NCBI GenBank assembly: GCA_030595125.1
Contig: JAUVDV010000007.1
Span: forward strand, 9,039 to 73,038
DNA from: Deltaproteobacteria bacterium
Lineage (GTDB): Bacteria > Myxococcota_A > Polyangia > JAAYKL01
Direction of reading: 5' to 3'
DNA: 64,000 bases
The stretch's first letter is position 1. Each line of letters begins with the position of its first letter. The translations under genes and the position numbers were made by a program. The notes under the pieces were generated by a model. The model was not told the DNA's origin. It was given only the letters and a program-made list of their open reading frames with translations, and did no database searches. This document shows positions 27,895-52,884 of the stretch, one piece after another.

Positions 27895-28003
27895 GGAACC
27901 AGGGAGAACTTACACCGAACCGGGGTTCCTGCTCAAGCTCCGGATTGCGACCGGCCCATATCGGGTCTATGTTAGCAATTGAGATGAAAGGTAAATATAG
28001 ATC

Positions 28004-29092: not shown

Positions 29093-29146
29093 GCAACTGA
29101 ATCCATCGCCGCTGTAACTGTATTGTTGTCGTGCACCCGCCATTGA

Positions 29147-36700: not shown

Positions 36701-38944
36701 ATGAAGCGCGAGATCGCAGGCGGCCTGATTGCCGGAGCTACCGGGGCGTTGATCGTCTCTATCGTCGAGCCGCTGCTCGGTGAGGGCGCGCCGCTCTTTG
36801 CATCCATTGCCGTGGCGTCAGGCCTTAACCTTCCCGTGGGCCTCTTGACGGGTCTTGTCCTGGTGCTGGTTCGCGCGCTCGCGCCGGAGGGTTGCAAGCC
36901 GTCCGACTGGATTCGCACGCTCGCCTCCCGGGATAACGCGGGCGCCGCCGCCCGGATCCTTGGCGTGGGCCTGGGGTCTCTCGCGTTGTTCCCGGTGTAC
37001 TACCGGATGATCTTCTTTTTCCTCACCGGCTTTCACCACCACGGCCTCGCCGCACTTGCCCTTTCTGTCTCTTCACTGCTTCTGACCGCGATCGCCGTCC
37101 TCATGGGCGTGAGGCTCGTCTCCTGGATGACCGTGCTCATCTCGCGATCCCCCGGGTTTCTCGGGGTTATTCGACGCCCCGCCGTCTGTCTGGCGGTTGT
37201 CGTCGCGGCATGGACCGCAGCCCTCGCTCCCCCGCTGCACACGGGATCCGACGCTACGGGCATCTTCGGCTTCGTGGGTTTTTTGATGAAGGACGGCCTC
37301 GGTGCGGGTCCTCTTTTCTCATGGATCGTCCTGACGACGATTGCCATTGCCATCCTCTGGCCTCTTCTCAAGCGGGATCGCGTGTGGCTCGTCCCGGCGG
37401 CCGGCGCCTGTCTTTTACTCGGCTTCCTGGGCCCCGTCTGGGCCGGTTCGATGATCGCGCACACTCCGCAAACCCTGGACAGGATCGACTCCGCAGGCGG
37501 GATGTCTCCGATGATCGGCAAGATCATCCGCAAGCTGGGAGACGGTGACGGCGACGGCCATGCCCGCTGGATGGGTGGCCTGGATTGCAACGACGAGGAT
37601 CCGTCCATCCGCCCGGGCGCACGGGAGATCCCGAACAATGGTGTAGATGAGGACTGCTCCGGCGCCGACCTGGATCTCGACGAGCTTCGCGCCGCCGCCT
37701 CGGGTGGTTCTGCCGGGGCCACGGGGGAGGGGACAACCTCCTTGAAACGCCCGGATCTGCCGAAAGACGTCTCCCTCTTCTTCCTCACGGTGGACGCGCT
37801 GCGCTGGGACGGGCCGGGGTTCATGGGCTACGACCGCCCGGTGACGCCGAACCTGGACAGGCTTGTGAAAAACGGAACCATCTACGATCGCGCCTACGCG
37901 CTGGGATCGTACACCGGCCAGTCCATACCCGCCGTGTTGACGGGCAAGTATGTCTCGGAGTTATTGAGGAACGACAAGCACGAGCTGCGCGTGTCGGGCA
38001 AGGAGAAATTTGCCGCCGAGTACATATGCGGCGATAACGTCCGCTGCAACGCCGTCCTCTCGCACTTTCTGTTCAAGCCCCACTACGGCTGGAGCCAGGG
38101 TTTTCAGGAGTGGCGAGTGTCGGGCGCGTCCCCGGAAGGCCCCGGGCATATTGACTCAAAGTACAACTCTCACCTGGTGGCGAATATGGCCATGAAGTGG
38201 TTGAAGGACCCGGAGAACACGAAGGGTCGATTCTGGATATGGACCCACTTCATGGATCCTCACAAGGAATACCTGGACCACAAGGGGTTCAAGCGGTTCG
38301 GAGACGATCGACGATCCCGCTACGACCAGGAAGTACTCTTCACCGATCACCATGTGGGGCGGATGCTCGACTTCTTCATGACCCTCCCCGCGGCGAAGCG
38401 CACAATCTTCATTGTGACCTCGGACCACGGGGAGGCGTTCAACGAGCATGGGCGATGGTGTCACGGCAAGGAGCTGTGGGAGGAAATTGTGCGCGTACCC
38501 TTGGCAGTGGTCGGACCGGGAATTGCCAAAAAGCGGATCGCGCGGCAGACCAGCCACATCGACCTGTTTCCCACCTTCCTGGATATCTTCAACCAGAAGA
38601 TCCCCGACGGTATACACGGAAGAAGTTTGCTGCCCGACTGGGTGGATGGGCAGGAGATCCCGGAGAAACCCATAGTGGTCGACCAGCCGAAGAACCCGTA
38701 CTACGAAACACGGCGAGTGTTCATCAAAGACGGCTGGAAGCTCCATGATCTCCCCGATACGGGCACCCACCGACTCTATCAAATTACCGACGACTACGAG
38801 CGAGGCGATTCCCTGGTAGAGACCGAGCCCGATAAGTTCACCGAGATCAAGGCGGCGTACGACCTCTTCATGGCCACGGAGTTCAAGCCCGTCTCGACTG
38901 TCAATTACGGAGCGGGCGACGTGAACAAGATGCCCCTGCCTTAG
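36701..38944 (+). CDS. Membrane-anchored sulfatase-family protein, paralog of 33297-35495 with the same three-part architecture
   Basis: N-terminal TM domain. GDGDGDGHARWMGGLDCNDEDPSIRPGAREIPNNGVDEDCSG. LTVDALRWD...TSDHGEAFNEHGRWCHG. Confidence 0.72.
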   Translation: MKREIAGGLIAGATGALIVSIVEPLLGEGAPLFASIAVASGLNLPVGLLTGLVLVLVRALAPEGCKPSDWIRTLASRDNAGAAARILGVGLGSLALFPVYYRMIFFFLTGFHHHGLAALALSVSSLLLTAIAVLMGVRLVSWMTVLISRSPGFLGVIRRPAVCLAVVVAAWTAALAPPLHTGSDATGIFGFVGFLMKDGLGAGPLFSWIVLTTIAIAILWPLLKRDRVWLVPAAGACLLLGFLGPVWAGSMIAHTPQTLDRIDSAGGMSPMIGKIIRKLGDGDGDGHARWMGGLDCNDEDPSIRPGAREIPNNGVDEDCSGADLDLDELRAAASGGSAGATGEGTTSLKRPDLPKDVSLFFLTVDALRWDGPGFMGYDRPVTPNLDRLVKNGTIYDRAYALGSYTGQSIPAVLTGKYVSELLRNDKHELRVSGKEKFAAEYICGDNVRCNAVLSHFLFKPHYGWSQGFQEWRVSGASPEGPGHIDSKYNSHLVANMAMKWLKDPENTKGRFWIWTHFMDPHKEYLDHKGFKRFGDDRRSRYDQEVLFTDHHVGRMLDFFMTLPAAKRTIFIVTSDHGEAFNEHGRWCHGKELWEEIVRVPLAVVGPGIAKKRIARQTSHIDLFPTFLDIFNQKIPDGIHGRSLLPDWVDGQEIPEKPIVVDQPKNPYYETRRVFIKDGWKLHDLPDTGTHRLYQITDDYERGDSLVETEPDKFTEIKAAYDLFMATEFKPVSTVNYGAGDVNKMPLP

Positions 38945-38965
38945 TAGGGGGTAGGGAAGAACCGT
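38881..38965 (+). repeat. Direct repeat copy 1: the last 60 bp of the sulfatase gene plus about 25 bp downstream
   Basis: gttcaagcccgtctcgactgtcaattacggagcgggcgacgtgaacaagatgcccctgcc is 60/60 identical to 40108-40167. The next ~25 nt are imperfectly conserved (ggaagaaccgttga). Confidence 0.9.
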
Positions 38966-38989
38966 TGATATATGTCAAGTGGAGGGGCG

Positions 38990-39976
38990 CTATTCGACTC
39001 CGGCCGAGAACTTCATGAACTGCACCCGCTCCCAGGCAGCCGGGTTGTCGGATTCGGCATGGCTCAGCAAACCCCTGAAAGCATCGACAGTCTCGAACTC
39101 GTGCTCCTCCATCCAGGTAAATAGTTGCTGGTTGAGGGTAGTAATGTAGTCGACACCGTTCTTGTACAGGGCGGAGACGACCTGAACGGTGGTCGCCCCT
39201 GCCAGGAGCAGCTTGATAACTGTCGCCGCGTTATGAACCCCTGTGGTAGCGCTCAGATCGCAATCCACCCGACCGTGCAGGAGAGAAATCCACCTCAGTG
39301 GAAGAATGAACTCACCTGGATCGCTCAGGACCGGCCCCTTCTTTAACTCCATGCTATCGATATCGATATCCGTGCTGAAAAAGCGATTAAACAGCGTTAG
39401 AGCTGCAACACCATCTTTGGACAGTTGCCGAGCGGTATTCGCCAGCCCCGAGAAATAGCTGCCCAGCTTGAGGGCCACCGGGATGTCGACGCGATCCCGA
39501 ACGGCCTTCGCGAGATCGCCGTAGAGTTGCTCAATTTGCCCTGCGGTTCGATCTGGATCGGAAGGAAGAACAAATGCGTTGAGCTCCAGGGCGTGGGCTC
39601 CCGCCGATTCGAGCCGCTTCGCGAAATCCGGCCACGCAGCGGCGGAAACACAGTGCACACTGGCGATGACAGGGATTTCCACCTTCTTGCGCGTTTCATC
39701 CACCAGCTTGAGGTATCTGGAAACCTCGTTCTCCCGAGTGTAAGCCCGTGTGTACTGAAGCGCCTCGGGATGCCACAGGCTCTCTTCCGCCGCAGATATC
39801 TCCGATTCAGTTTCGTGGGCTATCACCTCCTCGAAAATCGATTTGAGCACGACAGCACCGGCACCCGCCTGGGCGCACTTTTCCACGCCTTCGATATTCC
39901 TTGTGAGCCCGCAACTACCCACAATAAGAGGACTGTCGAGCTCCATGCCCATGTAAGTGGTTTTTAATGTTTTCAT
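38990..39976 (-). CDS. Dihydroorotate dehydrogenase-like (PyrD/PreA-family TIM-barrel flavoprotein)
   Basis: MKTLKTTYMGMELDSPLIVGSCGLT...GAGAVVLKSI...IPVIASV...LELN.S.P......VALKL, the DHODH-like pattern. The start is tentative. Confidence 0.58.
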   Translation of the reverse strand: MKTLKTTYMGMELDSPLIVGSCGLTRNIEGVEKCAQAGAGAVVLKSIFEEVIAHETESEISAAEESLWHPEALQYTRAYTRENEVSRYLKLVDETRKKVEIPVIASVHCVSAAAWPDFAKRLESAGAHALELNAFVLPSDPDRTAGQIEQLYGDLAKAVRDRVDIPVALKLGSYFSGLANTARQLSKDGVAALTLFNRFFSTDIDIDSMELKKGPVLSDPGEFILPLRWISLLHGRVDCDLSATTGVHNAATVIKLLLAGATTVQVVSALYKNGVDYITTLNQQLFTWMEEHEFETVDAFRGLLSHAESDNPAAWERVQFMKFSAGVE

Positions 39977-40107
39977 GAAGGAAAGATAACCCCAGCGCCG
40001 CTCAAAGGAAACCCTGAATGGGGTCAGGCCTGGAATGGGGTGGAAGGTTTCATGGCGATTCGGGTACGATGTTGCACTTCTCAATGACTCCCACTCCTGC
40101 AACCAGG

Positions 40108-40192
40108 GTTCAAGCCCGTCTCGACTGTCAATTACGGAGCGGGCGACGTGAACAAGATGCCCCTGCCGCCGGGTTACGGAAAGAACCGTTGA
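40108..40192 (+). repeat. Direct repeat copy 2 (duplicate of the sulfatase 3' end), at the left boundary of the low-GC island
   Basis: Identical 60-mer plus the imperfect tail gg-aaagaaccgttgaca. Confidence 0.9.
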
Positions 40193-40223
40193 CAAGTATA
40201 GCTTTAACCCTTTTGTTATTCGT

Positions 40224-41186
40224 TTACGCCCCCCCAGCAATACTGTTTAGGATAATGTCCCTTATAAAAATGTCCTTTCCAGTAATTACATCCACAACTG
40301 GCAAGTGCCTTATTAATTCTATGCGATTCCTTCCCCCTATATGCGACAAAGAACCATCCTTATTGCGCGATTCTCTAATATGACCCTCAATATATCCTGA
40401 CTTTGCTGTTAATACTTTAAATTTATTAGATAAATCCTTTCTTACGAAAAAAGCATTACTTCCCGCACTATTTGATCCTACAAAATCATATCCCTTTTTC
40501 TCTGCCAGATAACATAGTGCCGGCAATGAGGCGCCATAATACAGATTAGAATAATGGGCTTTTGTGCGTACAAAGCACGGATCATACGGAATAGTTACAG
40601 CTTTCACATTACCAAATACATTGTTATATTCACAGATAATGATTATGGGTTGCACAACATCAATGGCATCCCAGACCCAGTAGTCATTTCCATCTATATC
40701 AATACTCAACAATCCTATATCACCTTTAAAGCCGCTCATCTCAATAATATTGTTTATATTTTCTCTTGTAATGAAATGACTCTCCGCTGTTAACTCATAT
40801 TTCCAATATATATTATTTTTCTTGACGCGCTCAATATTTTTCTCCGAGCCATCAAATATCAAACCCTTCCAGTTATTATTCATCAATAAGAAACGTGTAT
40901 TTGCCTCCCTATAATCTTCAACACCAAACTCAATGAATGTCTTCTTTTTTTCTATTGAGATTTGATTAATTAAATATTGTATAATTCCATCTTCTCCCCA
41001 TTGGGAAAAAACCTTAAATTCTACCTCACTAAGCGAATTTATTGAACCTAATTGTTTTATCCTGCCAATATGGAGGCCTGCAGTAAGGAATAAGTTGGCT
41101 TCCAAATCACCTCGAAGTTCTCTATTAATAAAAGTTCGATATTTGGATGACAATTTTGAAAGTAATTTACTAATATCGCTAATCAT
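40224..41186 (-). CDS. Hypothetical protein of the low-GC glycan cassette. Possible sugar-modifying enzyme.
   Basis: 320 aa, GC about 35%. Motif FSQWGEDGII. I cannot place the family from memory. Confidence 0.45.
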   Translation of the reverse strand: MISDISKLLSKLSSKYRTFINRELRGDLEANLFLTAGLHIGRIKQLGSINSLSEVEFKVFSQWGEDGIIQYLINQISIEKKKTFIEFGVEDYREANTRFLLMNNNWKGLIFDGSEKNIERVKKNNIYWKYELTAESHFITRENINNIIEMSGFKGDIGLLSIDIDGNDYWVWDAIDVVQPIIIICEYNNVFGNVKAVTIPYDPCFVRTKAHYSNLYYGASLPALCYLAEKKGYDFVGSNSAGSNAFFVRKDLSNKFKVLTAKSGYIEGHIRESRNKDGSLSHIGGRNRIELIRHLPVVDVITGKDIFIRDIILNSIAGGA

Positions 41187-41198
41187 TTTACATCCTAA

Positions 41199-42464
41199 CT
41201 ATAAGATCGGCATCGCATTTATTATATCTTGATCTTCTTCTGACAATTCTACTCCCAATATTTTTCGATAATATGCTCGGAAATGGCGGCAAGTACGCTC
41301 CCATGTAAACCCATTTACATTTAGTTTTCCCTTTATAGACAGTTTTTCTCTTAATTTATCGTCTAACCATAATGTTTTAATGGCATTGGCAATACTTTGC
41401 TTGTCATAAGGGTCAAAGACCAGCGCTGCATTGTCTGCTTGTGCTGGAAGTGAAGTAACATTAGAACAAGCAACTGGCGCACCTGCATAAAAGGCCTCCC
41501 ATAGAGGAAAACTTGCTGCTTCAAATTTTGTCGGTATAATTACACAGCGGCATAATCTATAAAGTGCCTGTAACTCCCGTGGGGACACAAACCCTAAAAA
41601 TTTAACCTGATCATCCATTCTATATTTTTTGATAGCTTCCTGTATTCTAAGGTAAAATACATTTTTATGTCCAGAAAAAACAAGAGGTATTTTAATATCT
41701 AGTTCATCTCGCAAAGATGCCACTGCTTCAATTAAAGTAATGTGATTTTTATGCTCCCATGTTTGTGCAGGATAAAAAACAAAATCAGTCTGAAGTGCAT
41801 ACTTCTTTTTGGTGTCACATAAATCATCTTCTGTTGGCATTGGATACCCTACAGTGGGTGGCGCCAAAGGAATTACTTGTACCTTTTGATTTTGTAAGCC
41901 ATACTGAATTATTAAATCTTTTTTTGTCCATGTAGATACCACAGCAACTATTTTTGCTTGTTCACAAAATTTTCTGTATTGCACCTCTCGATTCAAATAC
42001 TGCCACTTGCTGAAAAATTCAGGCAAATGAATATGCTGAAGATCATGTGGATGATAGATGCTTGGCACATCTGTTAAAAATGCACCCTGTGATACAAAAT
42101 GAATTAAATTGATACCATGTTTTTCGATTAGACCGTCGGAACAGGCTATCTTAATCGCCCTGCTACCAATGATTGTGTATTGTGCAGACTTGATGAAACG
42201 CCATATTTTATTTGTAATTGGATATCGCTTGCTTATTCTGGTTTTCCAATGCGGAACAGAAGGGTTACTACGGCAAGTTATTATTTCACATGACCCATGA
42301 GTATAATTCTCCAACCAATTTTGAGACTCTGGATAAGTAAGAAAATAATATTTCTCATCGCCATCTACTAATTTTGAGAAACCTTGAGCCAGGCCAATAA
42401 CAACCTGCTCAACACCGCCGGATTTACCGGGTTCAACTCGAGCGTCTATGCAGATTTTTGGCAC
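41199..42464 (-). CDS. Glycosyltransferase family 4 (GT-B, RfaB-like)
   Basis: C-terminal GT4 signature PTKFEAASFPLWEAFYAGAPVACSNVTSLP. 421 aa. Confidence 0.78.
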   Translation of the reverse strand: MPKICIDARVEPGKSGGVEQVVIGLAQGFSKLVDGDEKYYFLTYPESQNWLENYTHGSCEIITCRSNPSVPHWKTRISKRYPITNKIWRFIKSAQYTIIGSRAIKIACSDGLIEKHGINLIHFVSQGAFLTDVPSIYHPHDLQHIHLPEFFSKWQYLNREVQYRKFCEQAKIVAVVSTWTKKDLIIQYGLQNQKVQVIPLAPPTVGYPMPTEDDLCDTKKKYALQTDFVFYPAQTWEHKNHITLIEAVASLRDELDIKIPLVFSGHKNVFYLRIQEAIKKYRMDDQVKFLGFVSPRELQALYRLCRCVIIPTKFEAASFPLWEAFYAGAPVACSNVTSLPAQADNAALVFDPYDKQSIANAIKTLWLDDKLREKLSIKGKLNVNGFTWERTCRHFRAYYRKILGVELSEEDQDIINAMPIL

Positions 42465-42922
42465 AGTCTAAACGTACCTATAAGCTCTTCATCGTTCAGC
42501 TGTTCAAAACTATAGCCAAAACTTTTATACATTTTTAAAGCTACTTCGTTGTCTTTGTATACCTTCAGTCTGACAATTTGAGCTTTTTTATTGCGGGCTA
42601 CATCATGAAGATATTGTATTAGCAATTTTCCTGCCCCCTTACCTCTTTTTTGGGGTGATATTGCAATCCCAAGGAATGGCACTTCATATCCCTCATCCCA
42701 ACCTCTTAATATGCCATAACCAATAATTTTGTTTTCATGCGTCATTACGCAATATATATCTTTACCTTTATAATTGACTACATTAAAGGCTTCTTTTTTA
42801 GTCAGAGGATGTGGATGAAAAAATTTATCATCACCAGAAGCTCTTAACTCCAAAAAATAATTGAATAATGCATCGCCCCATGAGGGTGACAAGTGTCTAA
42901 TTTCCAAAGAAGATGAGCACAT
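42446..42922 (-). CDS. GNAT-family N-acetyltransferase (WecD-like)
   Basis: 158 aa. Acetyl-CoA-binding motif-like ISPQKRGKGAGKLLI. Overlaps its neighbours. Confidence 0.7.
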   Translation of the reverse strand: MCSSSLEIRHLSPSWGDALFNYFLELRASGDDKFFHPHPLTKKEAFNVVNYKGKDIYCVMTHENKIIGYGILRGWDEGYEVPFLGIAISPQKRGKGAGKLLIQYLHDVARNKKAQIVRLKVYKDNEVALKMYKSFGYSFEQLNDEELIGTFRLCQKSA

Positions 42923-44046
42923 TAATGGTTGTCACTATAGTTTCTAATTATCTGTGATATTTCTGAAATATTATCATCCCTTAAATCAGCGTATGTAGGC
43001 AAATTCATTCCTGAAAAACTTAATTTACACGTAACTGGTAGTACCTCATTTCTACACTTAGACTCTTCCCGAAACGGTGGCAAAGTATGCAACGGAACAA
43101 AAAAAGGTCGAGTATCAACTCCTTTCTCTGCAAGAAATTCCATTAACTCATCTCGGGAACGTCCATAACTTTCTTGATCAACGGTGATACAAAACAACCA
43201 CGGCGCAGGATCTGCCCATTCTGCAAAGGGCTGAAATCCGATTCCGGGAATATCCCGAAGTAATTCACGGTAGGTCTTAAATATCTCCATTCTTCGTGCA
43301 ATTATTTCTTCAGAACGTTCCAACTGAGCACAAAGGATTGCGCAGGCAATATTTGTTAGGCGAAAATTGTATCCCGTGACGGGGAAATAATATTGTCTTA
43401 TGGGATCCATGCCTTGTCCACGCAAGGTTCTGGCTCGAACCGCCAATTGTTTATCGTGAAGAGCAATTGCTCCGCCTTCGCCACAAGTGAGGATCTTGTT
43501 GCCATAGAATGAAAAAGTTCCAATCTGTCCCAATCCCCCTACAGGTATGCCCTTATATTTTGCAAAATGTGCCTCAGCAGCATCTTCTACAACCCATAGG
43601 CCATGAACAGCTGCAATGTGATTAATTGCATCCATATCTGCAGGATGACCATACAAGTGGACGGCTATAATCCCCTTGGTACGACGGGTTATGTTTTCCT
43701 CTAAAAGATTCGGATCAATACACCAGGTATCTGGATCAATATCCACAAAAACAGGCTCAGCGCCTACATAGCGCACCGCATTTGCGGTGGCAATATAAGT
43801 TAACGAAGGAATAAGAACCTCATCTCCAGGCCGGACATCTAAAGCAAGCAACGCAAGATGCAAAGCAACAGTTCCGTTACATACACTCAGCACATGATCT
43901 GTATCGCACTTGTTTGCAAACTCTTCTTCAAATTGATCTATGTATGCCCCAGTAGATGAAATCCAAGTGCTTTCGATAGCATCGGATACATATTTATTTT
44001 CATTTCCTGACAAGTCAGGAATTGCTACTGGTATTTTAGTCACCAA
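42922..44046 (-). CDS. DegT/DnrJ/EryC1/StrS-family PLP-dependent sugar aminotransferase (WecE-like)
   Basis: LSVCNGTVALHLAL...GDEVLIPSLTY.AT.NA...GA.PVFVDID...FSFYGNKILTCGEGGA. Confidence 0.85.
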   Translation of the reverse strand: MVTKIPVAIPDLSGNENKYVSDAIESTWISSTGAYIDQFEEEFANKCDTDHVLSVCNGTVALHLALLALDVRPGDEVLIPSLTYIATANAVRYVGAEPVFVDIDPDTWCIDPNLLEENITRRTKGIIAVHLYGHPADMDAINHIAAVHGLWVVEDAAEAHFAKYKGIPVGGLGQIGTFSFYGNKILTCGEGGAIALHDKQLAVRARTLRGQGMDPIRQYYFPVTGYNFRLTNIACAILCAQLERSEEIIARRMEIFKTYRELLRDIPGIGFQPFAEWADPAPWLFCITVDQESYGRSRDELMEFLAEKGVDTRPFFVPLHTLPPFREESKCRNEVLPVTCKLSFSGMNLPTYADLRDDNISEISQIIRNYSDNH

Positions 44047-44960
44047 AATAATTTCCTCAACCTTCTGAATTGAGTTTTAAAGCTGTTTGTTTTTGAACGC
44101 TTCTTTTTATAAAAACTAATTATCATTTCCCTTGCATGAGTATTCTCTACAATATCAATTGTAACTAGGTTCACTTGATGATCAAGAGATAGTACCATAT
44201 CATAGTAACTATTTTTAACACAATGAGTTCCACTTCCGTCGTGGCCAATATTTCTCACCAAGCTTTTCCCAGGCATTAAGTGTAGCTTTTTATTTATAAA
44301 GTTAGATGCATACCATCTTATTGCCCAGGAATCAATTTTCCCATCAATTTGATTAAGTAACATACTATAAAAAGAGAAAGTTCCATCAAGATCAAACTGT
44401 TTCTTTTTTTTACTGCGATTTATTTCAAATAATAGCCGGTTGGCATCTTTTTCAAAAGAATTCCATGTTTTTTCCCAAGTAGCCCACCCCCAGCTACTCC
44501 CCTTTTCTAAAAAAAAGTTTTCAGGCAAACCAACTATCGGTTCAATAAAACCACTTATTGATGCGATATTATCATTATTAGCATATTTGTTCAGAGCATC
44601 ATTCATAAATCTCAAGAAATATGGACTGGTTACCAGATCATCCTCAAGGACAATGACTCTCCCATATTTGTTAACTACCTTGCTAACGCCATCAATAATA
44701 GAATCTGCCAGCCCCAGATTTTTTTCTCCAATTCGGATGGTCACTGTTTTAAATCCATCAATAGTGTGAATATACTTCCTCACCTTTTGAACAGCTTCTT
44801 CACTTTGCTCGTCTTTGGGGGCATCTGAATAGATGAAAAGGTCACTTCGATCGGACAGCTCATTCTTCTGCAAAGTTTCAACAGTTTGTTGCGTATGCCA
44901 GGGGCGGTTGTATACAAAGAGAACTATTGGGGCTAATTCCATCTTGTACTCTTTCATCAT
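44040..44960 (-). CDS. GT-A fold glycosyltransferase (family 2-like) with a DxD motif
   Basis: PIVLFVYNRPWHTQQTVETL, then VIVLEDDLV (DxD). Low GC, no SD (consistent with a Bacteroidota-like donor). Confidence 0.6.
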   Translation of the reverse strand: MMKEYKMELAPIVLFVYNRPWHTQQTVETLQKNELSDRSDLFIYSDAPKDEQSEEAVQKVRKYIHTIDGFKTVTIRIGEKNLGLADSIIDGVSKVVNKYGRVIVLEDDLVTSPYFLRFMNDALNKYANNDNIASISGFIEPIVGLPENFFLEKGSSWGWATWEKTWNSFEKDANRLLFEINRSKKKKQFDLDGTFSFYSMLLNQIDGKIDSWAIRWYASNFINKKLHLMPGKSLVRNIGHDGSGTHCVKNSYYDMVLSLDHQVNLVTIDIVENTHAREMIISFYKKKRSKTNSFKTQFRRLRKLFW

Positions 44961-45435
44961 AGCAAATATCGGAAAAACCACTAAATGCTTGGGTATAGCT
45001 TGTTAGATGCCTCAGATACCTGTCTGTTTGGTGGTGTTTAGGCAGTTAAAATCCAGAAACAACACCGCTGTTTTTAGCGGATGCGGCGGAATAAACGTAT
45101 TTGATGAACTATTTTGCACATCGCCCTCTATTTAAAACTCAATAATTTAGAACTCAAAAATCTTTCAAAATACACAATAGTCTTTACAAGCCCATCTTTC
45201 AGCTTGATCTCCGGCTAACAATCCGGCTCCTCCTTTGCCACGATGATATAATGGGAGTCTTTTTCACGATAATACCTCTTTAATATCCATTCTTCGGAAG
45301 CACGTAGCCCGTATTAAGATATGTCATTATTGACAAACTACTGTCTAAAACAGCTTTTCAGCTGAGAAATGTTAAAATTGACACCTTCGATTAATGGCAA
45401 AATGCCATCGCTAAACACCAAAGGAGGGCACAGCG

Positions 45436-45981
45436 ATGGTACCACGAACAGCGAGAATCTTCAGTCAACTTCTAAAAATATTCCCGCAGACCGAGTTCGC
45501 GAAAATCGTAAGGAAACACGGGGCCGAGAGCCACTCCAAGGGTTTCACGAGCTGGTCCCAGTTTGTCTCGATGCTGTTTTGCCAACTCGCGGGGGCGGAG
45601 TCGCTGCGCGAGATCTGCACCGGGTTGGGTTGTTGCCTCGGAAAACGGCGACACCTGGGCGTGAACACGCCTCCCAACAAGTCAACGTTATCGTACGCCA
45701 ACGCCCACAGGCCCGCCGCGATGTTCGAGGAGCTGTTCGTGAACACAATCGCACGTTTCAGATCTCTGGGCGAGTTGGGTCCCGGGAAGTACAAGTTCCG
45801 GTTCAAGAACAAGCTGTACAGCATGGACGCCACGGTCATCTCGCTGTGCCTGTCAATGTTCCCTTGGGCCAGGTACCGCACCGCCAAGGGCGGCGTGAAG
45901 GCTCACGTTCTCATCAGCCACAGCGATTACATGAACCCGCCCCTACTCGGGTACGATGTTGCCCCATTCGGGCTCGGATGA
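45436..45981 (+). pseudogene. Truncated IS4-family (DUF4372-type N-terminus) transposase fragment, an IS remnant
   Basis: 181 aa FSQLLKIFPQTEFAKIVRKHGAESHSKGFTSWSQFVSMLFCQLAGAESLREICTGL...TLSYANAHRPAAMFEELF matches the N-terminal region of IS4-family transposases. It lacks the DDE catalytic part and ends inside the neighbouring gene's 3' end. Confidence 0.6.
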
Positions 45982-48324
45982 CGGCGCCTCGCCGTCGTAT
46001 TCCTCGTCGTCTTCAGGCAGCACCCGGATCCCGCTTCGGCTGATGGGTATCCTCGATTCCGGAAGAGGATCTCCCTCGTAGTAGAACCGGAGTTCCTGGT
46101 TCAGCCCCTCCGCAAGCTCCGCCCGGTCGATTCTCCCGCGATCGAACATGGTTTTCATCACCCGGTGCAGGGAGTTCATCTTGCGCTCGGACACCTGGTT
46201 TCGCACGTAGGTTCCGTGGCGGGTTATCGGGCTGGGCAGAAGCTTGATCAGGAAGACCGACTCCACGAGGTTGAGCTCGTATGGCTCCCGTCCGAAGTAA
46301 TGGTTTGCCGCCTCCTTGATTCCGTACAGAGACGGGCCGAATTCGATGACGTTGAAATACAACTCCAGGATCTCGTCTTTTGTGAACTGGGACTCCAGGT
46401 ACCAGGTGAAGAAGAGCTCCTGCAGCTTTCTGGCCACGGTCCGCTCCCGGTTCATGAAGAGGTTCTTGGCCAGCTGCATGGTGATGGTGCTGGCCCCGTG
46501 GCTCAGGCTGTCCTTCTTGAGGTTGAGCTCGATGGCTCTTCTTATCTCCGGGATGGTCACGCCCCGATGATGCCGAAACTTCCCATCTTCGGTGGTGAGC
46601 GCCGCCTCCACGAGGTACGGCGAGATCGCGGAGTACGGCGTCCATCTGTCCGTCCCCTGACCGCTGATCAGTCGCATGGGTTCTGCGTCGGCGTCATAGA
46701 CGGTGTAAGAGAACGGTCTTCGGAAATCCTGCGGGTTCGGTATAGTGCCGAAGTCTGTGATCTGGCATCGGTTGTCCAGGTTCACCTCCAGCGCCGTTTT
46801 TTTAGGTGCGTCCTCGTCGATGCCCAGTCGCATGTCCAGGGCGAACAACCCCTTCAGCTGTGTCCCTTCCAGGCGAGGCTTCAGCTGCGAGGGCACCGCC
46901 GCGAGGATCTGGCGACAGGCCGTGGGAGGGACGTTACCGGAGATATCAAAGGCGAAACGATCAAACATCACGTTGCCTCGCAGGGTGATCCTGGCAAGCC
47001 CTCGCACCACCATCAACCGCTCCAGGTTGAGCTGCTCCTTGCCCTTCTCGTAGCTCGCCTTGAAATCCAGATGGGCGTCGATATCCTCGATGGGCTCCGC
47101 CGCCAGCTTCGGATGACTCACCTCAACCCCCGAGATCGAAGCCTGGCCTTCGAACGCCAACTTCTCCCCGTTGTCCTGCAACTCCACAACTACGGTTCCG
47201 TCGACCGATGCATGCCCCCACTTTACGTGTTCGTTGGGCACAAACATCTCACCGACGGTCTTCAGCGGCATGTCCGGTATTTCGAAAGAAGCGCTGGGAT
47301 CCCCTTCTTTGGGCCAACTCGCCCCCAACACCCATCGAGCATCGGTTCCCGGCATCTGTCCGCTCGCCCGGATCATCAACGCCTTTTTTCGTGTCATGGA
47401 AATCTCCCCGGATACGCCGGAGAGCTTTACCTCCAGATCCACGTCGCCCGATTTCGACAGCACGCCGGCCGCATCCAGGACGTCTACCTTCACCGAGATA
47501 CCCTCATCATCATCTGCCGGACCGGCCTCCACCGGCTCGGCGCCCCCATCGGTCGTGCCCGGGCCTCCCTGCGAATCAAGCATGCCGAGCGCGCGTGCGC
47601 TATCCCTGGCGTCATTGACGAGTTTTTCAAGATCATTGAAGGCCACGGGCAGATCGAAGCCCGGTTGATTGAGGGAAAGAGATACATGTTCTCTCTCGCT
47701 TCTTATCTGGACCTCGCAGGATTCCCCGACAACAAGATTTTGCCCGAGATGAACCAGCGTGAAATCATCGGTGTTGACTACAGCTCCTCCCCCGTCCGAC
47801 AGCCGCCCGGACAACCCCTCTACAGTCACCGAGAATCTTCCATCATCCGCGACGAGACGACCCGAGACGATGTGGACCTCGGGGATGGATCGCATCGGAC
47901 CGTCGCCTTTCGCCTCCGCGTCCGTTCTGCTGGCAACCCGTTCGATCACCCCCCTCCATTCTGCGGCCGGTGCTCCGTCGAGGGGTTCACCCATCCTGAT
48001 CTCGAGGCCGTCCACCCGGATGCCGGTGAGATCGAGATCTCCCATCAACAACGACCCTACCCGCACCCCGACTCCGAGGCTCTCGATCAGGGCGAGCGGC
48101 CGTGAACCCTCCGTCGACCGGACCTCTACATTTTCGAAAACCACTGAAGAAAGCGAGATGTCTACATCTTCGAAGGATATTCTAACGCCAAGTCGCTCCT
48201 CGACCCTGGGAATCAAGCCCTCGATGATACGCTCGTCGGCCCCGGATTGAAGAAACAGAAGCGCCAGGAGGCCCAGAACGAGCACCAATATGAAGAGGGC
48301 GAGGAGCCAGCGCTTGATACCCAT
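45943..48324 (-). CDS. Large membrane-anchored protein with a C-terminal monofunctional peptidoglycan transglycosylase (GT51) domain and an about 550-aa N-terminal AsmA-like region
   Basis: N-terminal TM LLALFILVLVLGLLALLFL. C-terminal EDGKFRHHRGVTIPEIRRAIELNLK...GASTITMQLAKNLF...RKLQELFFTWYLE...KDEILELYFNVIEFG (GT51 motifs). Confidence 0.72.
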   Translation of the reverse strand: MGIKRWLLALFILVLVLGLLALLFLQSGADERIIEGLIPRVEERLGVRISFEDVDISLSSVVFENVEVRSTEGSRPLALIESLGVGVRVGSLLMGDLDLTGIRVDGLEIRMGEPLDGAPAAEWRGVIERVASRTDAEAKGDGPMRSIPEVHIVSGRLVADDGRFSVTVEGLSGRLSDGGGAVVNTDDFTLVHLGQNLVVGESCEVQIRSEREHVSLSLNQPGFDLPVAFNDLEKLVNDARDSARALGMLDSQGGPGTTDGGAEPVEAGPADDDEGISVKVDVLDAAGVLSKSGDVDLEVKLSGVSGEISMTRKKALMIRASGQMPGTDARWVLGASWPKEGDPSASFEIPDMPLKTVGEMFVPNEHVKWGHASVDGTVVVELQDNGEKLAFEGQASISGVEVSHPKLAAEPIEDIDAHLDFKASYEKGKEQLNLERLMVVRGLARITLRGNVMFDRFAFDISGNVPPTACRQILAAVPSQLKPRLEGTQLKGLFALDMRLGIDEDAPKKTALEVNLDNRCQITDFGTIPNPQDFRRPFSYTVYDADAEPMRLISGQGTDRWTPYSAISPYLVEAALTTEDGKFRHHRGVTIPEIRRAIELNLKKDSLSHGASTITMQLAKNLFMNRERTVARKLQELFFTWYLESQFTKDEILELYFNVIEFGPSLYGIKEAANHYFGREPYELNLVESVFLIKLLPSPITRHGTYVRNQVSERKMNSLHRVMKTMFDRGRIDRAELAEGLNQELRFYYEGDPLPESRIPISRSGIRVLPEDDEEYDGEAPSSEPEWGNIVPE

Positions 48325-48471
48325 GACCGACGAAGTCTTTCATGAACACTGAATTAATTCAACGTACCCGCATACGAATCATGGGTGATCGGTCAAGCAA
48401 CATGCGCTTGAGGAAACTGCGACCTTTTGCGAAGATGACCGGCGATGGGACGTTTGATCAGGCAAACAGAA

Positions 48472-48957
48472 ATGGAGACAATGGCCGGAACACTGGTGGC
48501 GCAGCTGGCCGATTTCGATCCGCAAGCGGTGGTCTACATCCATTCCCAGGGTCATTTCTTCGGTGAGTTGATCGCTCGTTCCTACGGTGTGGATCTTTTC
48601 AAGCTGGACCTTCGATATCCCTTCAGCCGTGTACTCACCTCGATCCCGAGGCCGCTCCACATTCCCCTGTGGCCGCTGAAGGAGTTGATTTACAAGGTTT
48701 CGGCTCCTTCATTCAATGGAGCCGTGCAACTGCCACGCCCGGGTGTTCGGGTAACCCTGGTGGATGACTCGGCGAGCAGCGGGCGAACGATCCGAATTGC
48801 CCTGCGTATCCTCGAGGACAACGGTCACAAGCGCAAAGACATTCGCGTTGCCGTGCTTCGATGCGGCGGCAGGGCTCGGGAACTGGTAGATCATTACGTT
48901 ACCGGGAGTCCGAGGATATTCAGTCCTCCAAAGAGCCGGGGCGTAAAGGAAGCATGA
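48472..48957 (+). CDS. Phosphoribosyltransferase-like protein
   Basis: PRPP-binding-type motif VTLVDDSASSGRTI. Confidence 0.5.
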   Translation: METMAGTLVAQLADFDPQAVVYIHSQGHFFGELIARSYGVDLFKLDLRYPFSRVLTSIPRPLHIPLWPLKELIYKVSAPSFNGAVQLPRPGVRVTLVDDSASSGRTIRIALRILEDNGHKRKDIRVAVLRCGGRARELVDHYVTGSPRIFSPPKSRGVKEA

Positions 48958-49651
48958 GCTCAAGGGCCTGGCCCCCTTCGGTATCACCAACTGCGGCGGA
49001 ACCGCGCAGAAAGTTTGCTGCGAGCCCCACGGCGTACAGGCCGAGCGCCCGCCCGTACCGCGAGCCGGAATCCGATTTCGACCGGGTCTGATGGGACTTG
49101 GTAAAAATATCTTCGTGGTGCTCCCTGGCAATGGGCGCACCCTGATCTCGCACAACGAACAAGGCATTGTTCCCCTCGACTCGCGCGCTTACTTTTACGA
49201 CGCCGTCGGTGGGGGAGTACCGGCTGGCAGTGACAATCAGATTATCCAGCGCGAGTTCGGCGTACGGGGTCTCCCACTCGCAAATTTGGGGCACAATCCC
49301 ATCATCGATCTCGATGGGCGGGCTCGAAGCCGAAAACAGCTTGCGACACCTTTCCACCGATCTGTTCACGAATTCGTCGAGCTTCACGGAACCCACCCCT
49401 TGATGCTCGCCAGCTTCCAGTCGCCCGATCTGAGTAAAATTGCCTATCATGGCCAGGAGGGAATTGACGGCCTGAATGGAATCTTCAATGGCTTCACGGG
49501 TATCCTCGTCTGCATCCTCCATCACGGTTTTTATGTAACTCAGATTAGTTATGATCGCGGAAATGGGGTTCCGAAAATCGTGGGTGAGAAGCTTGACGGA
49601 GCTTGAATTACCGTTGATCCAGTCCTCTAGAGCGTTATCTGGTCCGGGCAT
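48920..49651 (-). CDS. Cytoplasmic sensor histidine kinase (HisKA plus HATPase_c only)
   Basis: H-box LTHDFRNPISAI. N-box/G-box-like regions ...DNLIVTASRYS...GLGLYAV.... Confidence 0.68.
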   Translation of the reverse strand: MPGPDNALEDWINGNSSSVKLLTHDFRNPISAIITNLSYIKTVMEDADEDTREAIEDSIQAVNSLLAMIGNFTQIGRLEAGEHQGVGSVKLDEFVNRSVERCRKLFSASSPPIEIDDGIVPQICEWETPYAELALDNLIVTASRYSPTDGVVKVSARVEGNNALFVVRDQGAPIAREHHEDIFTKSHQTRSKSDSGSRYGRALGLYAVGLAANFLRGSAAVGDTEGGQALELMLPLRPGSLED

Positions 49652-50054
49652 GCCTTACGAATCTTCTTGCCACGTAGCAACGTAGCTGTTCCCTGGCGTC
49701 GTGACCCATGTCACAGAATGCCACGCCCATCCCCGCGCTTCCCTGGCCGTCTCCAACGTCGGCCCGGACGACCTTTCCCTTGACGGAAAACGGACGCCGG
49801 CTGGAGGGCAGGGAAAGTCGAAGGAGCAACTCCTCACCCTCGTATAACAGGAGATCCGAGTGCAGATAAACTCCCACGGCGCTCAGGTCGAAGCAGTCGA
49901 ATGCCATGGCATCCCCCTGTTCGTCCACCAGCTCGATTGACACATCCTCCATTGATCTTCGGGTACTTGTCCTGCGATTCACCCGGCGGGACGACCCCGT
50001 GGCAGTCACTGCAACTTGCTTTGCGGCGTGTCCGGAGCGTCGCGGATTAACCAT
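49635..50054 (-). CDS. PilZ-domain protein
   Basis: RRVNRRTSTRRSMEDVSIELVDEQGDAMAFDCFDLSAVGVYLHSDLLLYEGEELLLRLSLP (RxxxR...DxSxxG PilZ motifs). The start is uncertain (ATG at 50054 or TTG at 50114). Confidence 0.55.
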   Translation of the reverse strand: MVNPRRSGHAAKQVAVTATGSSRRVNRRTSTRRSMEDVSIELVDEQGDAMAFDCFDLSAVGVYLHSDLLLYEGEELLLRLSLPSSRRPFSVKGKVVRADVGDGQGSAGMGVAFCDMGHDAREQLRCYVARRFVRHARTR

Positions 50055-50149
50055 GAAATCAATTATTTCACAACTGGGACCCGGGGTCAAAATCTTTCTA
50101 TTATACTTCGCCAATCGATGCTAATATGCTCTTTATCAAGGAGCCAAAC

Positions 50150-51325: not shown

Positions 51326-51332
51326 TCTGATA

Positions 51333-52334: not shown

Positions 52335-52464
52335 TAACTCCCTCTTGTCTGGGATATACTAACCGAATGCTGTCTTTACAAAACTAAAACGGTGGTCCTT
52401 GACAGCGGGCGGGGGCACCCTTTAAGGTGCTTGCCTCGTTTCGACGAGGTGGAGGGATAAGAAA

Positions 52465-52830: not shown

Positions 52831-52840
52831 AAGCTGGCCT

Positions 52841-52884
52841 CCATCATCTTCCCCTTCCCCTCGCAGGGGAAGGCCGGGATGGGG
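52841..52884 (-). repeat. Conserved hairpin element, copy B (reverse orientation)
   Basis: ccatcatcttccccttcccctcgcaggggaaggccgggatgggg. Lies between the convergent dksA-like and histidine-kinase stops. Confidence 0.8.

Follow-up and report, generated by a model that had tools for sequence, protein, structure and literature searches.

A low-GC glycan-gene island, probably of recent Desulfobacterales-like origin, at a rearranged chromosomal junction in a Polyangia-like myxococcote

How did a compact run of AT-rich glycan genes come to lie in a GC-rich chromosome, and what could it do there? We analyzed the locus in a window of 64 kb (64,000 nucleotides) from a metagenome-assembled contig. Judged by its genes, the host is an uncultured Polyangia-like Myxococcota: the best named matches of its IMPDH are Polyangia, Myxococcota and 'Deltaproteobacteria' MAGs (73-77% identity), and the flanks hold genes typical of the Polyangia/Myxococcota group (MopE-motif proteins, a Ser/Thr kinase and PEGA). 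Across 40193-45336 the GC content is 37.5%, compared to 58.5% in the rest of the window, and the ranges measured in 500-nt windows do not overlap (0.314-0.462 inside, 0.478-0.700 outside). Third-position GC (GC3) of the five genes is 0.28-0.33, and that of the flanking genes 0.66-0.79. The sharp GC drop and AT-rich codon usage described in an initial annotation of this DNA are therefore real, and its five packed minus-strand reading frames were all found where it had placed them, with the domains it had ascribed to them and in the correct gene classes:

40193-45336, no strand: low-GC island of 5,144 bp, comprising five genes and a 394-nt AT-rich upstream spacer
40224-41186, minus strand: 320-aa protein with a class I SAM-methyltransferase fold, from a large family that has no Pfam model, distantly FkbM-like
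41199-42464, minus strand: GT4 (GT-B fold) glycosyltransferase, 421 aa (PF00534, 90 bits; PF13439, 50.6 bits)
42446-42922, minus strand: GNAT N-acetyltransferase (PF00583, 57.4 bits), its start overlapping the aminotransferase stop
42922-44046, minus strand: DegT-family PLP-dependent sugar 4-aminotransferase (PF01041, 411 bits), closest to GDP-perosamine synthase
44040-44942, minus strand: GT-A-fold glycosyltransferase, 300 aa, GT13/GT2-like, with an invariant E-D-D motif
44943-45336, no strand: AT-rich spacer ahead of the operon, non-coding, 38% GC

Read along the minus strand, the order is thus GT-A glycosyltransferase, aminotransferase, GNAT, GT4 and 320-aa protein; all five genes are intact, full length, and overlapping or nearly abutting. 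The true start of the GT-A gene lies at 44942, giving the 300 residues seen in homologues, and the aminotransferase probably starts at a GTG at 44043. Shine-Dalgarno sequences had been reported as lacking, which holds only in part: three of the five starts have purine-rich, SD-like motifs (GAAAGAG, GAGGAAA, TAGGAT) 6-10 nt upstream. No homology of the spacer to any fetched locus was found, and a promoter scan of it gave no signal above chance.

The surroundings of the island are considerably less tidy than its interior:

36701-38944, plus strand: sulfatase with a MopE-type metal-binding motif, host flank
38881-38968, plus strand: copy A-prime, the current sulfatase 3' end, with 60 nt 100% identical to copy A
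38990-39952, minus strand: dihydroorotate-dehydrogenase-like (DHOD-like) gene of the PRK07565 family (NF005741, 398 bits), host flank, between A-prime and A
40060-40075, plus strand: left copy of a 16-nt direct repeat, TCGGGTACGATGTTGC, upstream of the DHOD-like gene
40076-40107, no strand: 32-nt stretch between the left 16-mer and copy A, of unmatched origin
40108-40192, plus strand: copy A, the displaced authentic sulfatase 3' end (...MPLPPGYGKNR*), directly abutting the island
45337-45936, plus strand: IS4-family remnant, with an intact left terminus and transposase residues 1-166 of ~398, DDE domain missing
45943-48324, minus strand: AsmA-like domain fused to a peptidoglycan transglycosylase (PBP gene), host flank, its stop 9 nt from the truncated IS
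45947-45962, plus strand: right copy of the 16-nt repeat, forming the five terminal codons of the PBP gene

The island is limited on the right by the IS left end and on the left by the stop codon in copy A, and its similarity to the donor-type contigs described below tails off near 40236. Comparison with sister genomes, which the initial annotation had recommended, placed no island at this site in either of two close relatives. Relative L003 (90% nucleotide identity) shares synteny with the window as far as the sulfatase stop codon, beyond which it has unrelated genes, and L005 (97% nucleotide identity) carries the sulfatase, the DHOD gene and the 16-mer, followed by a different high-GC gene. 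The simple empty site that an insertion model predicts (DHOD, 16-mer, PBP) was not seen in L005.

Close counterparts of the island lie instead in low-GC (36-40%) metagenome contigs, at 83-94% nucleotide identity. L006 matches at 89.5% over 2,983 nt (GT4 94%, GNAT 93%, methyltransferase-like gene 88%), L007 at 84.5% over 3,783 nt and L027 at 83.2% over 3,800 nt. L007 has the block as part of a complete Wzx-type polysaccharide locus, where Wzx is followed by the aminotransferase, GNAT, GT4, the methyltransferase-like gene and four more glycosyltransferase genes, and the non-glycan flanks also have ~40% GC. The proteins encoded in these flanks fall into clusters of at least 90% identity with Desulfobacterales / Thermodesulfobacteriota MAG proteins, a result at odds with the Bacteroidota- or Firmicutes-like donor proposed earlier. 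The donor was probably a Desulfobacterales-like, low-GC anaerobe, a phylum call based on the 90%-identity cluster mates of this one contig's flanking genes. Among GTDB species representatives the best match is Desulfosarcina cetonica (GT4 56%, aminotransferase 71%); L027 has been binned as Ca. Aenigmarchaeota.

The GC content of polysaccharide loci often lies below that of the genomes that carry them, and an ancestral host locus of aberrant composition, like many O-antigen clusters, would resemble the island in this respect. We give this reading almost no credence, as the block is missing at this site in the relatives of 90% and 97% identity, no other glycan genes were found around it, the contigs most similar to it also have low-GC non-glycan genes, and the best species-representative match is to Desulfobacterales, not Myxococcota. 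Together, composition, absence at this site in close relatives and identity to low-GC contigs provide good support for horizontal acquisition of a glycan-gene island, as originally proposed. The transfer also appears recent, since amelioration was not detected: the island has 35.9% GC in this comparison, against 35.3-35.4% in its relatives, AT-to-GC changes are not over-represented on the window branch, and no drift towards host GC is detectable. Its genes have dN/dS values of 0.13-0.33.

The junctions bear on how the island arrived and on whether it belongs to this chromosome at all. An att-like repeat had been noted at the left edge; the repeat exists, but it is an 85-nt duplication of the sulfatase 3' end that brackets the DHOD-like gene rather than the island, and only its right copy abuts the island. 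Copy A matches the sulfatase end of L003 (...PPGYGKN*). In A-prime, a 15-nt patch comes after the 60 identical nucleotides; its 8 differences introduce an early stop (...MPLP*), and the same patch is present in L005. That relative departs from the window exactly at the right edge of the left 16-mer, and relative L004 has 14/16 bases at the right one; the exact 16-mer occurs only twice in the window, compared to 0.04 occurrences expected by chance. The 32 nt at 40076-40107 had no match in any fetched locus. The site is a rearrangement-prone chromosomal junction.

Such a structure could also result from an assembly or binning artefact, in which a foreign low-GC contig and a Myxococcota contig were fused at short repeats, and the island is not in the genome. 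The source is a metagenome-assembled 87-kb contig, the 60-nt and 16-nt repeats bracket the island where assemblers may err, and breaks occur in the Logan contigs of run SRR18920792 at 40138, 44646 and 45873. Only the deposited NCBI assembly documents junctions 40075/40076 and 40107/40108 and the stretch 44646-45873. We nevertheless regard an artefact as very improbable. Logan contig L001, which was built separately, spans the A-to-island junction: beyond the island it continues for 55 nt in GC-rich DNA, which is the displaced authentic Myxococcota sulfatase 3' end and matches L003. On the other side, the low-GC DNA directly adjoins an IS of high-GC type whose terminus is correctly defined. Furthermore, 16 nt is shorter than the k-mers used by assemblers, and A-prime and A differ in the specific patch shared with L005, and therefore do not represent a collapsed repeat.

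At the right edge, the truncated IS4-family element of the initial annotation is present, but its extent is 45337-45936 and not 45436-45981, the tail of that reading frame being a read-through that enters the last part of the PBP gene; nor does it belong to the low-GC block, as its GC3 of 0.78 is host-like. Its left end was set by comparing ten independent full copies. As in IS4-family elements with DUF4372 and DDE_Tnp_1 domains, the remnant has DUF4372 (90 bits) and the shared left terminus, and in tblastn searches it is 89% identical to full-length transposases of 396-401 aa. In contrast to these, it ends after residue 166 (the match stops at 45933) and lacks the DDE domain, the right end and a target-site duplication. 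Because its composition is host-type, the remnant does not look like the island's vehicle, and the element was probably inserted after the island and then truncated. It is the only copy in the 64-kb window, and the island is therefore not a composite transposon. As no intact mobility gene accompanies the island, we infer that it entered by illegitimate or short-homology recombination. A host-type IS4-family element would later have inserted at its right edge and lost its distal 60% in a deletion ending 9 nt past the PBP stop codon, and the same deletion may have taken the rest of the original locus.

Next, we considered what the five proteins might do. The aminotransferase and GNAT had been likened to WecE and WecD, a pair that would make dTDP-Fuc4NAc or a similar dTDP-linked 4-acetamido-4,6-dideoxyhexose. 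The island does have the pairing of WecE/WecD and PseC/PseH, in that the DegT aminotransferase gene directly precedes and overlaps the GNAT gene; WecE-type models match the aminotransferase (PRK11706, 259 bits; TIGR02379, 222 bits), and the WecD model matches the GNAT at E 6e-4. However, both WecE-type NCBIfam cut-offs (375 and 435 bits, respectively) are missed, the WecD score of 19.8 bits is far from its cut-off of 219, and the PseC (256 bits) and PseH (35 bits) models likewise stay below cut-off. The best solved relative of the aminotransferase is a GDP-perosamine synthase, that of Caulobacter (3BN1; E 3.4e-98, 46% identity over 356 aligned positions, with the PLP-lysine motif ...SFYGNKIL... 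aligned), whereas a WecE-type enzyme reaches only E 1e-47, and the score for GDP-perosamine synthase is double that for WecE-type structures (332 versus 166 bits). All NCBIfam equivalog cut-offs are missed, the nearest model being that of the LegC family (342 bits, cut-off 420), which also acts on GDP-linked sugars. Finally, a 90%-identity cluster mate has been named 'perosamine synthetase' by JGI, and neither rmlA nor rmlB was found nearby. We therefore consider the dTDP-linked pathway unlikely, and set aside the WecE- and WecD-like labels, although an identity of 46% to GDP-perosamine synthase would not allow sugar specificity to be read reliably. The GNAT itself falls below the cut-off of every NCBIfam equivalog model (RimI 56, PseH 35, WecD 20 bits), with RimI-type models nearest.

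For the GT-A glycosyltransferase, a Foldseek search returned POMGnT1 and GnT-I as best matches (E 5e-11 to 3e-10), with SpsA and KfiA next; its AF2 model has a pLDDT of 90.6, E100-D101-D102 is invariant, and many homologues carry PF00535. The 320-aa protein had been described as unknown with an FSQWGEDGII motif. The motif is there, as are EFG and DIDGNDYW, but the protein can now be placed in the methyltransferase fold. Across phyla, members of its family retain 55-60% identity, and six of the ten long members examined have GT2 domains fused to the methyltransferase-like domain. Next to a Per-like aminotransferase gene, the methyltransferase-like gene is found in Anabaena, a Nostocales MAG, a Planctomycetaceae MAG and Desulfofarcimen acetoxidans; cyanobacterial loci share the aminotransferase-GNAT-GT4 order, and the four-gene module of aminotransferase, GNAT, GT4 and methyltransferase-fold protein recurs across phyla. 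In the window, this gene has lost a stop codon kept in relatives, which adds 8 residues.

These assignments suggest a route that would begin with a GDP-mannose 4,6-dehydratase encoded elsewhere in the host, yielding GDP-4-keto-6-deoxymannose. The Per-like aminotransferase would convert this to a GDP-4-amino-4,6-dideoxyhexose of the perosamine type, the GNAT would N-acetylate its amine, GT4 and the GT-A enzyme would place the N-acetylated sugar and a neighbouring sugar on a lipid-linked glycan, and the methyltransferase-fold protein may methylate a sugar of that glycan. The block encodes neither a dehydratase or nucleotidyltransferase nor an initiating transferase, flippase or polymerase, so the cassette could do no more than decorate a glycan of the host's own making. 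GMD, ManC, a flippase and other glycan genes were not found elsewhere in the 64-kb window either, and the required host pathway is thus assumed.

Accordingly, the cassette either modifies an existing host glycan or is inert cargo, a dead-end remnant of a larger locus that is unexpressed or useless in this host and intact only because it arrived recently. The block lacks functions that the full locus in L007 includes, a truncated IS adjoins it and its junctions are scrambled, amelioration is absent, codon usage is extremely foreign (GC3 ~0.3 against ~0.75), no promoter signal exceeds chance, and the stop codon of the methyltransferase-like gene has already been lost. Conversely, five full-length reading frames persist although stop codons arise easily in AT-rich DNA, their overlapping start and stop codons are retained, and the same four-gene module has been kept across phyla and therefore works as a portable unit. 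Inert cargo is a possibility we take seriously yet find doubtful; it concerns function only and is compatible with horizontal transfer. We favor, with reasonable confidence, a recent island from a low-GC polysaccharide locus, probably Desulfobacterales-like, that would be expressed and modify a glycan in its Polyangia-like Myxococcota host. Horizontal transfer of this kind is ordinary; what stands out is only one uncharacterised family of enzymes and the untidy state of the insertion site.

Comparison with characterized systems places the cassette in context. In the GDP-perosamine pathway (GMD plus Per/RfbE; Caulobacter crescentus Per, PDB 3BN1 and 3DR4), Per aligns with the island aminotransferase from end to end. 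That pathway differs in its N-acylating enzymes after Per, PerB and WbdR, which are left-handed beta-helix enzymes and not GNATs, and in its gmd gene, which is missing from the 64-kb window; we know of no GNAT acting on GDP-perosamine. FkbM-family SAM-dependent methyltransferases (PF05050) resemble the 320-aa family through weak PF05050 matches in 11 of 32 members, and the D-I-D-G-x-D of the island protein, which we take to be the counterpart of the FkbM 'KiDvEG' motif, sits at such a match (residues 142-189). Yet its PF05050 score is 19.3 bits against a Pfam cut-off of 22.7, no relative in the PDB is detectable by sequence, and the family is marked by an N-terminal motif of its own, FSQWGEDGI, which is strongly conserved. 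Low-GC, horizontally exchanged O-antigen and capsule clusters are well established, for example the enterobacterial rfb clusters. The island differs from them in having five genes only, without wzx, wzy, wzz, an initiating transferase or sugar-activation genes, and in lying outside a conserved polysaccharide locus, between the sulfatase/DHOD-like pair and the peptidoglycan transglycosylase gene. It resembles them in a GC content far below that of the host, in combining sugar-modification genes with glycosyltransferases, and in gene content that is mosaic among relatives, as GT4 and the methyltransferase-like gene differ in their identity to L006 (94% and 88%).

The drop in GC content described in the initial annotation of this DNA is borne out by sliding-window GC and third-position GC (GC3), both of which set a block of five glycan genes apart from its flanks. 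GC content is 37.5% over window positions 40193-45336 (5,144 bp) compared with 58.5% in the rest of the window, and 500-nt windows span 0.314-0.462 inside the block and 0.478-0.700 outside it, with no overlap between the two distributions. The five genes have GC3 values of 0.28-0.33, whereas the flanking sulfatase, DHOD-like and PBP (AsmA-like/peptidoglycan transglycosylase) genes have values of 0.79, 0.66 and 0.74, respectively. The composition break is thus real and sharp. The features of the locus are as follows:

38881-38968: A-prime, copy of the sulfatase gene 3' end
38990-39952: DHOD-like gene
40060-40075: left copy of a 16-nt direct repeat
40108-40192: A, second copy of the sulfatase gene 3' end
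40193-45336, minus strand: island of five genes (GT-A glycosyltransferase, aminotransferase, GNAT acetyltransferase, GT4 glycosyltransferase and a 320-aa methyltransferase-fold protein)
45337-45936: remnant of an IS4-family insertion sequence
45943-48324, minus strand: PBP gene, the right host flank
45947-45962: right copy of the 16-nt direct repeat

All five minus-strand open reading frames were found where they had first been placed. They overlap or lie almost end to end: the stop codons of GT-A and of the aminotransferase run into the starts of the aminotransferase and GNAT genes, respectively, and 19 nt are shared between GNAT and GT4. The accompanying statement that the genes lack Shine-Dalgarno sequences holds only in part, as three of the five starts carry purine-rich motifs 6-10 nt upstream. 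Promoter and terminator scans of 39.9-46.1 kb gave counts no higher than those of shuffled controls, and an Rfam scan of the window returned no match. ARAGORN detected no tRNA or tmRNA in the window, so that the island shows no tRNA- or tmRNA-adjacent insertion, and the Pfam and NCBIfam searches revealed no integrase among the island reading frames, the sole mobility gene being the truncated IS4 transposase of host-type composition. The model of a tRNA-targeted integrative element was rejected.

We then considered the host. The window derives from an 87,030-bp NCBI contig, and its IMPDH finds its best named matches in metagenome-assembled genomes (MAGs) of Polyangia, Myxococcota and "Deltaproteobacteria" (73-77% identity); host-type flank genes for MopE-motif proteins, a Ser/Thr kinase, a PEGA protein and RNase G fit that group. 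Three host relatives were available, all as short contigs, and the island was seen in none of them. L003 (GCA_030591725.1, ~90% nucleotide identity) is collinear with the window between 26.9 kb and the stop codon of the sulfatase gene, beyond which it runs into unrelated genes; L005 (an ENA contig, 97% nucleotide identity) carries the sulfatase, the DHOD-like gene and the next 123 nt, followed by a different high-GC gene; and L004 (GCA_030621295.1, 97% nucleotide identity) stops shortly beyond the PBP stop codon, within a 28-nt tandem repeat. Presence or absence in sister genomes, which had been proposed as a check on the island, is thereby answered at the same site, since L003 and L005 lack the island at this junction.

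The same comparisons revealed other differences between these genomes. Directly after the PBP stop codon, L004 holds at least four head-to-tail copies of the 28-nt unit (GACGTTCGACGCTTGTCCGCCGTCGGAT; L004 4617-4727). A 399-aa reading frame on the plus strand (50126-51325; GC3 host-like at 0.71, no match in Pfam) is missing from the 97%-identical L004 exactly from one reading-frame boundary to the other, a gene-sized presence/absence difference. The stretch 27914-29131, with a 362-aa reading frame (28004-29092; no Pfam match), is missing from L003, and the internal repeat of this reading frame is also seen near window position 2.4 kb. Conversely, an AAA_14/DUF4143 ATPase gene of L003 (4084-5412) is missing from the window at 32110/32112.

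A chimeric assembly, in which the island would not truly belong to this genome, has in its favor that the deposited assembly is the sole source for 44646-45873 and for the joins 40075/40076 and 40107/40108. However, the separately built Logan contig L001 (run SRR18920792), 100% identical to window 40138-44646, extends beyond the island by 55 nt of GC-rich sequence, which is the end of a Myxococcota sulfatase gene (...MPLPPGYGKNR*; ...PPGYGKNQ* in L003), and thus links the island to an authentic host sulfatase end. A second Logan contig, L002, covers 45873-52859 and so takes in the transition from the IS remnant to the PBP gene. We therefore consider a chimera very improbable.

Next, we examined the origin of the island. 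Its closest relatives are three contigs of low-GC DNA (36-40%) with 83-94% nucleotide identity to the island: L006 (89.5% overall; 94% for GT4 and 93% for GNAT), L007 (84.5% over 3.8 kb) and L027 (83.2% over 3.8 kb, including the GT-A gene). L007 is the most informative of them: the block there is part of a full locus, in which a Wzx flippase gene precedes the aminotransferase, GNAT, GT4 and methyltransferase-like genes and a further four glycosyltransferase genes come after them. The non-glycan flanks of L007 are likewise ~40% GC and encode proteins that cluster at ≥90% identity with those of Desulfobacterales and Thermodesulfobacteriota MAGs. A scan of GTDB species representatives with the GT4 protein found no close donor; the best match was Desulfosarcina cetonica (Desulfobacterales) at 56% identity. 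The Bacteroidota- or Firmicutes-like donor suggested in the initial annotation is not borne out, as both the L007 flanks and the best GTDB representative point to Desulfobacterales, and the donor would have been a low-GC bacterium most like that order. Horizontal acquisition itself, also proposed at the outset, is upheld by composition, by absence from close relatives and by nearest homologues in an unrelated low-GC lineage. As a side observation, L027 (GCA_021161725.1) is a 5.5-kb contig binned as a Ca. Aenigmarchaeota archaeon (DPANN), with the gene order GT-A, aminotransferase, GNAT, GT4 and then a pyruvyl transferase gene; either it is mis-binned or the module has crossed between domains, too.

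The dN/dS values between the island and its relatives are 0.13-0.33. Over the stretch from GNAT to the methyltransferase-like gene, GC content is 35.9% in the island and 35.3-35.4% in the relatives, and when the direction of substitutions was compared between the window branch and those of L006, L007 and L027, the window branch showed neither a significant GC bias nor an excess of AT-to-GC changes. Together, these data indicate that the acquisition was recent. Searches with the island DNA gave a single partial match (65% identity, a Spirosoma plasmid) in plasmid collections and none in phage collections. Among IMG/VR viral contigs, there was no GT4 relative and the methyltransferase-like relatives were distant only (30-54% identity), on the basis of which a viral vector was rejected.

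We then turned to the junctions. At the left edge, homology to donor-type contigs fades ~12 nt past the stop codon of the relatives' methyltransferase-like gene; this stop codon is lost in the window copy, adding eight residues. Another 43 nt separate the end of donor homology from copy A, the displaced true sulfatase 3' end, whereas the functioning sulfatase gene ends in A-prime. The two copies share 60 identical nt and then differ at eight positions of a 15-nt patch, which creates a premature stop in A-prime and truncates the sulfatase by 8-9 residues; the A-prime patch is also present in L005. The more distant relative, L003, has an undisturbed sulfatase gene end followed by other genes. 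JGI metagenomes were scanned twice with exact patterns from the sulfatase 3' end, once for the A type and once for the core, with no match. The A/A-prime arrangement gives the impression of an earlier integration or rearrangement event at this gene end. The att-like repeat (85 nt) initially assigned to the left edge of the island is real, but it brackets the neighboring gene rather than the island, since A-prime and A enclose the DHOD-like gene.

A different repeat brackets the entire novel segment (40076-45946, 5.87 kb). This exact 16-nt direct repeat, TCGGGTACGATGTTGC, is found only at 40060-40075 and 45947-45962, against a chance expectation of 0.04 occurrences. The PBP gene has its last five codons in the right copy, 14 of whose 16 bases are present in L004, and L005 parts from the window precisely at the right-hand end of the left copy, beyond which it carries a different gene. 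Judged from sequence, this arrangement would fit insertion of a circular intermediate by recombination in a 16-nt core, at a site whose cargo varies between strains; microhomology-mediated joining would also fit. No recombinase gene is present that could be connected with either the 16-nt or the 85-nt repeat. The 16-nt repeat may be a recombination hot spot holding strain-specific cargo. Separately, a terminator-like hairpin (40013-40028, minus strand) is found immediately downstream of the left 16-mer, still upstream of the DHOD-like gene, a placement that one would expect if the end of a PBP-like gene once sat there.

At the right edge, the left terminus of the insertion sequence, ACTACTGTC(C/T)AAAACAGCTTTTCAGCTGAG, starts at 45337 and is common to ten aligned full-length copies in ten different contexts. 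The transposase remnant comprises residues 1-166 of ~398 (89% identity); the match stops at 45933, and the PBP stop codon (45943-45945) follows 9 nt past its end. The remnant scores 90 bits for DUF4372 and 83.7 for NF033592 (cut-off 115), and the DDE_Tnp_1 domain is absent as the gene is cut after residue 166. The truncated IS4 element reported at this edge is therefore present, with its left terminus, but its GC3 of 0.78 is host-like, which speaks against its being part of the acquired DNA or its vehicle. Full copies of the element are found in GC-rich contexts and, together with the host-like codon usage, this makes a resident element that inserted into the new DNA more likely than a vehicle. 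The simple model in which IS4 brought in the island is for the same reason of codon usage unlikely, and a composite transposon was rejected because the 64-kb window holds a single, truncated IS copy. Following insertion of the resident element, its distal 60% would have been lost by deletion, and the same deletion may also have taken away whatever else the locus originally contained; the island lacks the flippase gene and the additional glycosyltransferase genes of L007. Apart from the identical Logan contig, none of the fetched loci contains a homologue of the 394-nt spacer, the left-edge 43 nt or a 32-nt segment.

We next evaluated what the five genes encode. The aminotransferase belongs to the DegT family (PF01041, 411 bits) and reaches no NCBIfam equivalog cut-off, the top model being the LegC family TIGR04181 (341.7, cut-off 420). 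Its top solved match, by far, is the Caulobacter GDP-perosamine synthase 3BN1 (E 3.4e-98, 332 bits, 46% identity over 356 columns), with which its PLP-lysine motif ...FSF(Y/F)GNKI... is aligned, compared with 166 bits for a WecE-type enzyme among solved structures; one 90%-identity cluster mate carries the JGI label "perosamine synthetase". The WecE models PRK11706 (258.8, cut-off 375) and TIGR02379 (222.4, cut-off 434.85) both remain below threshold. Similarly, the GNAT protein matches PF00583 (57.4 bits, gathering cut-off 20.7) and falls short of the equivalog models for RimI (56, cut-off 86), PseH (35, cut-off 93) and WecD (PRK10975; 19.8, cut-off 219). With none of the WecE and WecD cut-offs reached and the aminotransferase nearest to GDP-perosamine synthase, the WecD/WecE-like pair proposed earlier is not supported, and the cassette is not a WecE/WecD system.

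GT4 is well above threshold for both PF00534 (Glycos_transf_1; 90.0 bits, cut-off 26.4) and PF13439 (Glyco_transf_4; 50.6, cut-off 28.5). A start at 44942 gives the GT-A protein 300 aa, the same length as its homologues. In Pfam it matches GNT-I only (18.4 bits, cut-off 25.4), with the PF00535 and PF03071 gathering scores not reached, and many of its homologues have precomputed PF00535 matches. Its AlphaFold model (pLDDT 90.6) matches POMGnT1, GnT-I, GnT-II, SpsA and KfiA, and E100-D101-D102, a DxD-type motif, is invariant in the family. The modeled structure identifies the predicted product as a GT-A-fold glycosyltransferase, GT2/GT13-like.

The 320-aa protein with the FSQWGEDGII motif represents a very large family, with more than 8,000 matches scored in a first search, and 9,344 cluster representatives at E ≤1e-3 and 1,847 at E ≤1e-30 in an exhaustive profile search. 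Its conservation is unusually high, as members from Firmicutes, Bacteroidota, Gammaproteobacteria and others are still 55-60% identical. Pfam has no model for the family, a profile search of the PDB gave chance-level matches only, and PHROGs gave none. The protein has a Rossmann-like class I SAM-dependent methyltransferase fold; the FkbM model PF05050 scores 19.3 bits (cut-off 22.7), with weak matches in 11 of 32 homologues (best E 3e-4), and the invariant E86-x-G88 and D112, at the end of strand 2, would fit a predicted SAM-binding site. Six of the ten long members examined have N-terminal GT2 domains. The methyltransferase-like gene has a Per-like aminotransferase gene as its immediate neighbor in Anabaena sp. 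54, a Nostocales MAG, a Planctomycetaceae MAG and Desulfofarcimen acetoxidans, and from the neighboring genes in those genomes, the aminotransferase, GNAT, GT4 and methyltransferase-like genes therefore constitute a recurrent portable module. Distant members of the family (30-54% identity) also occur on 15 IMG/VR viral contigs, on none of which a Per-like aminotransferase gene is adjacent. Two separate proposals, taken jointly, are speculative and rather unlikely to both hold: that the family may be an undescribed glycan or nucleotide-sugar methyltransferase partnering perosamine-type aminotransferases and GT2 enzymes, and that the 16-nt repeat may be a recombination hot spot with strain-varying cargo and no integrase of its own.

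The gene classes, the folds and the conservation of the module are shown by the analysis; the following pathway is inferred. A host GDP-mannose 4,6-dehydratase (GMD) would supply GDP-4-keto-6-deoxymannose, from which the aminotransferase would make a GDP-perosamine-type sugar for acetylation by GNAT. GT4 and GT-A would attach the acetylated sugar and a neighboring sugar to a lipid-linked glycan, and the methyltransferase-fold protein would methylate a sugar, the GT2 fusions suggesting that it acts at the stage of glycan assembly. A tblastn search with a bona fide GMD (TIGR01472, 622 bits) gave no match in the 64-kb window, and donor-locus proteins used as queries likewise revealed no GMD, ManC, Wzx or further glycosyltransferase there. 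With no means to start, flip or polymerize a glycan, the cassette is limited to redecorating one that is already made, unless it is inert cargo. The latter, an island of no use to its host, is a minority possibility that would be compatible with horizontal acquisition.

We regard the island as a clean, well-bounded case in which surface-glycan genes recently passed from one phylum to another, from a Desulfobacterales-like lineage to Myxococcota, both formerly classed as Deltaproteobacteria; such transfers are useful for calibrating island detection in metagenome-assembled genomes. The portable four-gene module (Per-like aminotransferase, GNAT, GT4 and methyltransferase-fold protein) recurs in Cyanobacteria, Planctomycetota and Firmicutes, and its fourth member represents a very large, highly conserved family that has neither a name nor a solved structure. 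This uncharacterized and widespread family offers a modest lead for glycobiology and, if the 320-aa protein is indeed a glycan or nucleotide-sugar methyltransferase that partners perosamine-type aminotransferases and GT2 enzymes, the island would give its host a methylated N-acetyl-perosamine-like decoration. The junction anatomy, with its displaced gene end, 16-nt bracket and truncated IS, records how integrase-less DNA can settle in a chromosome. Neither the module nor the junction anatomy touches a long-standing open question.

Compared with known systems, the cassette is like the Per-type amino-sugar branch, except that it has a GNAT where a beta-helix acetyltransferase is usual. The island is an instance of the already familiar phenomenon of horizontally exchanged low-GC polysaccharide genes, which it resembles in kind, although it is a five-gene fragment and sits in a non-glycan neighborhood.
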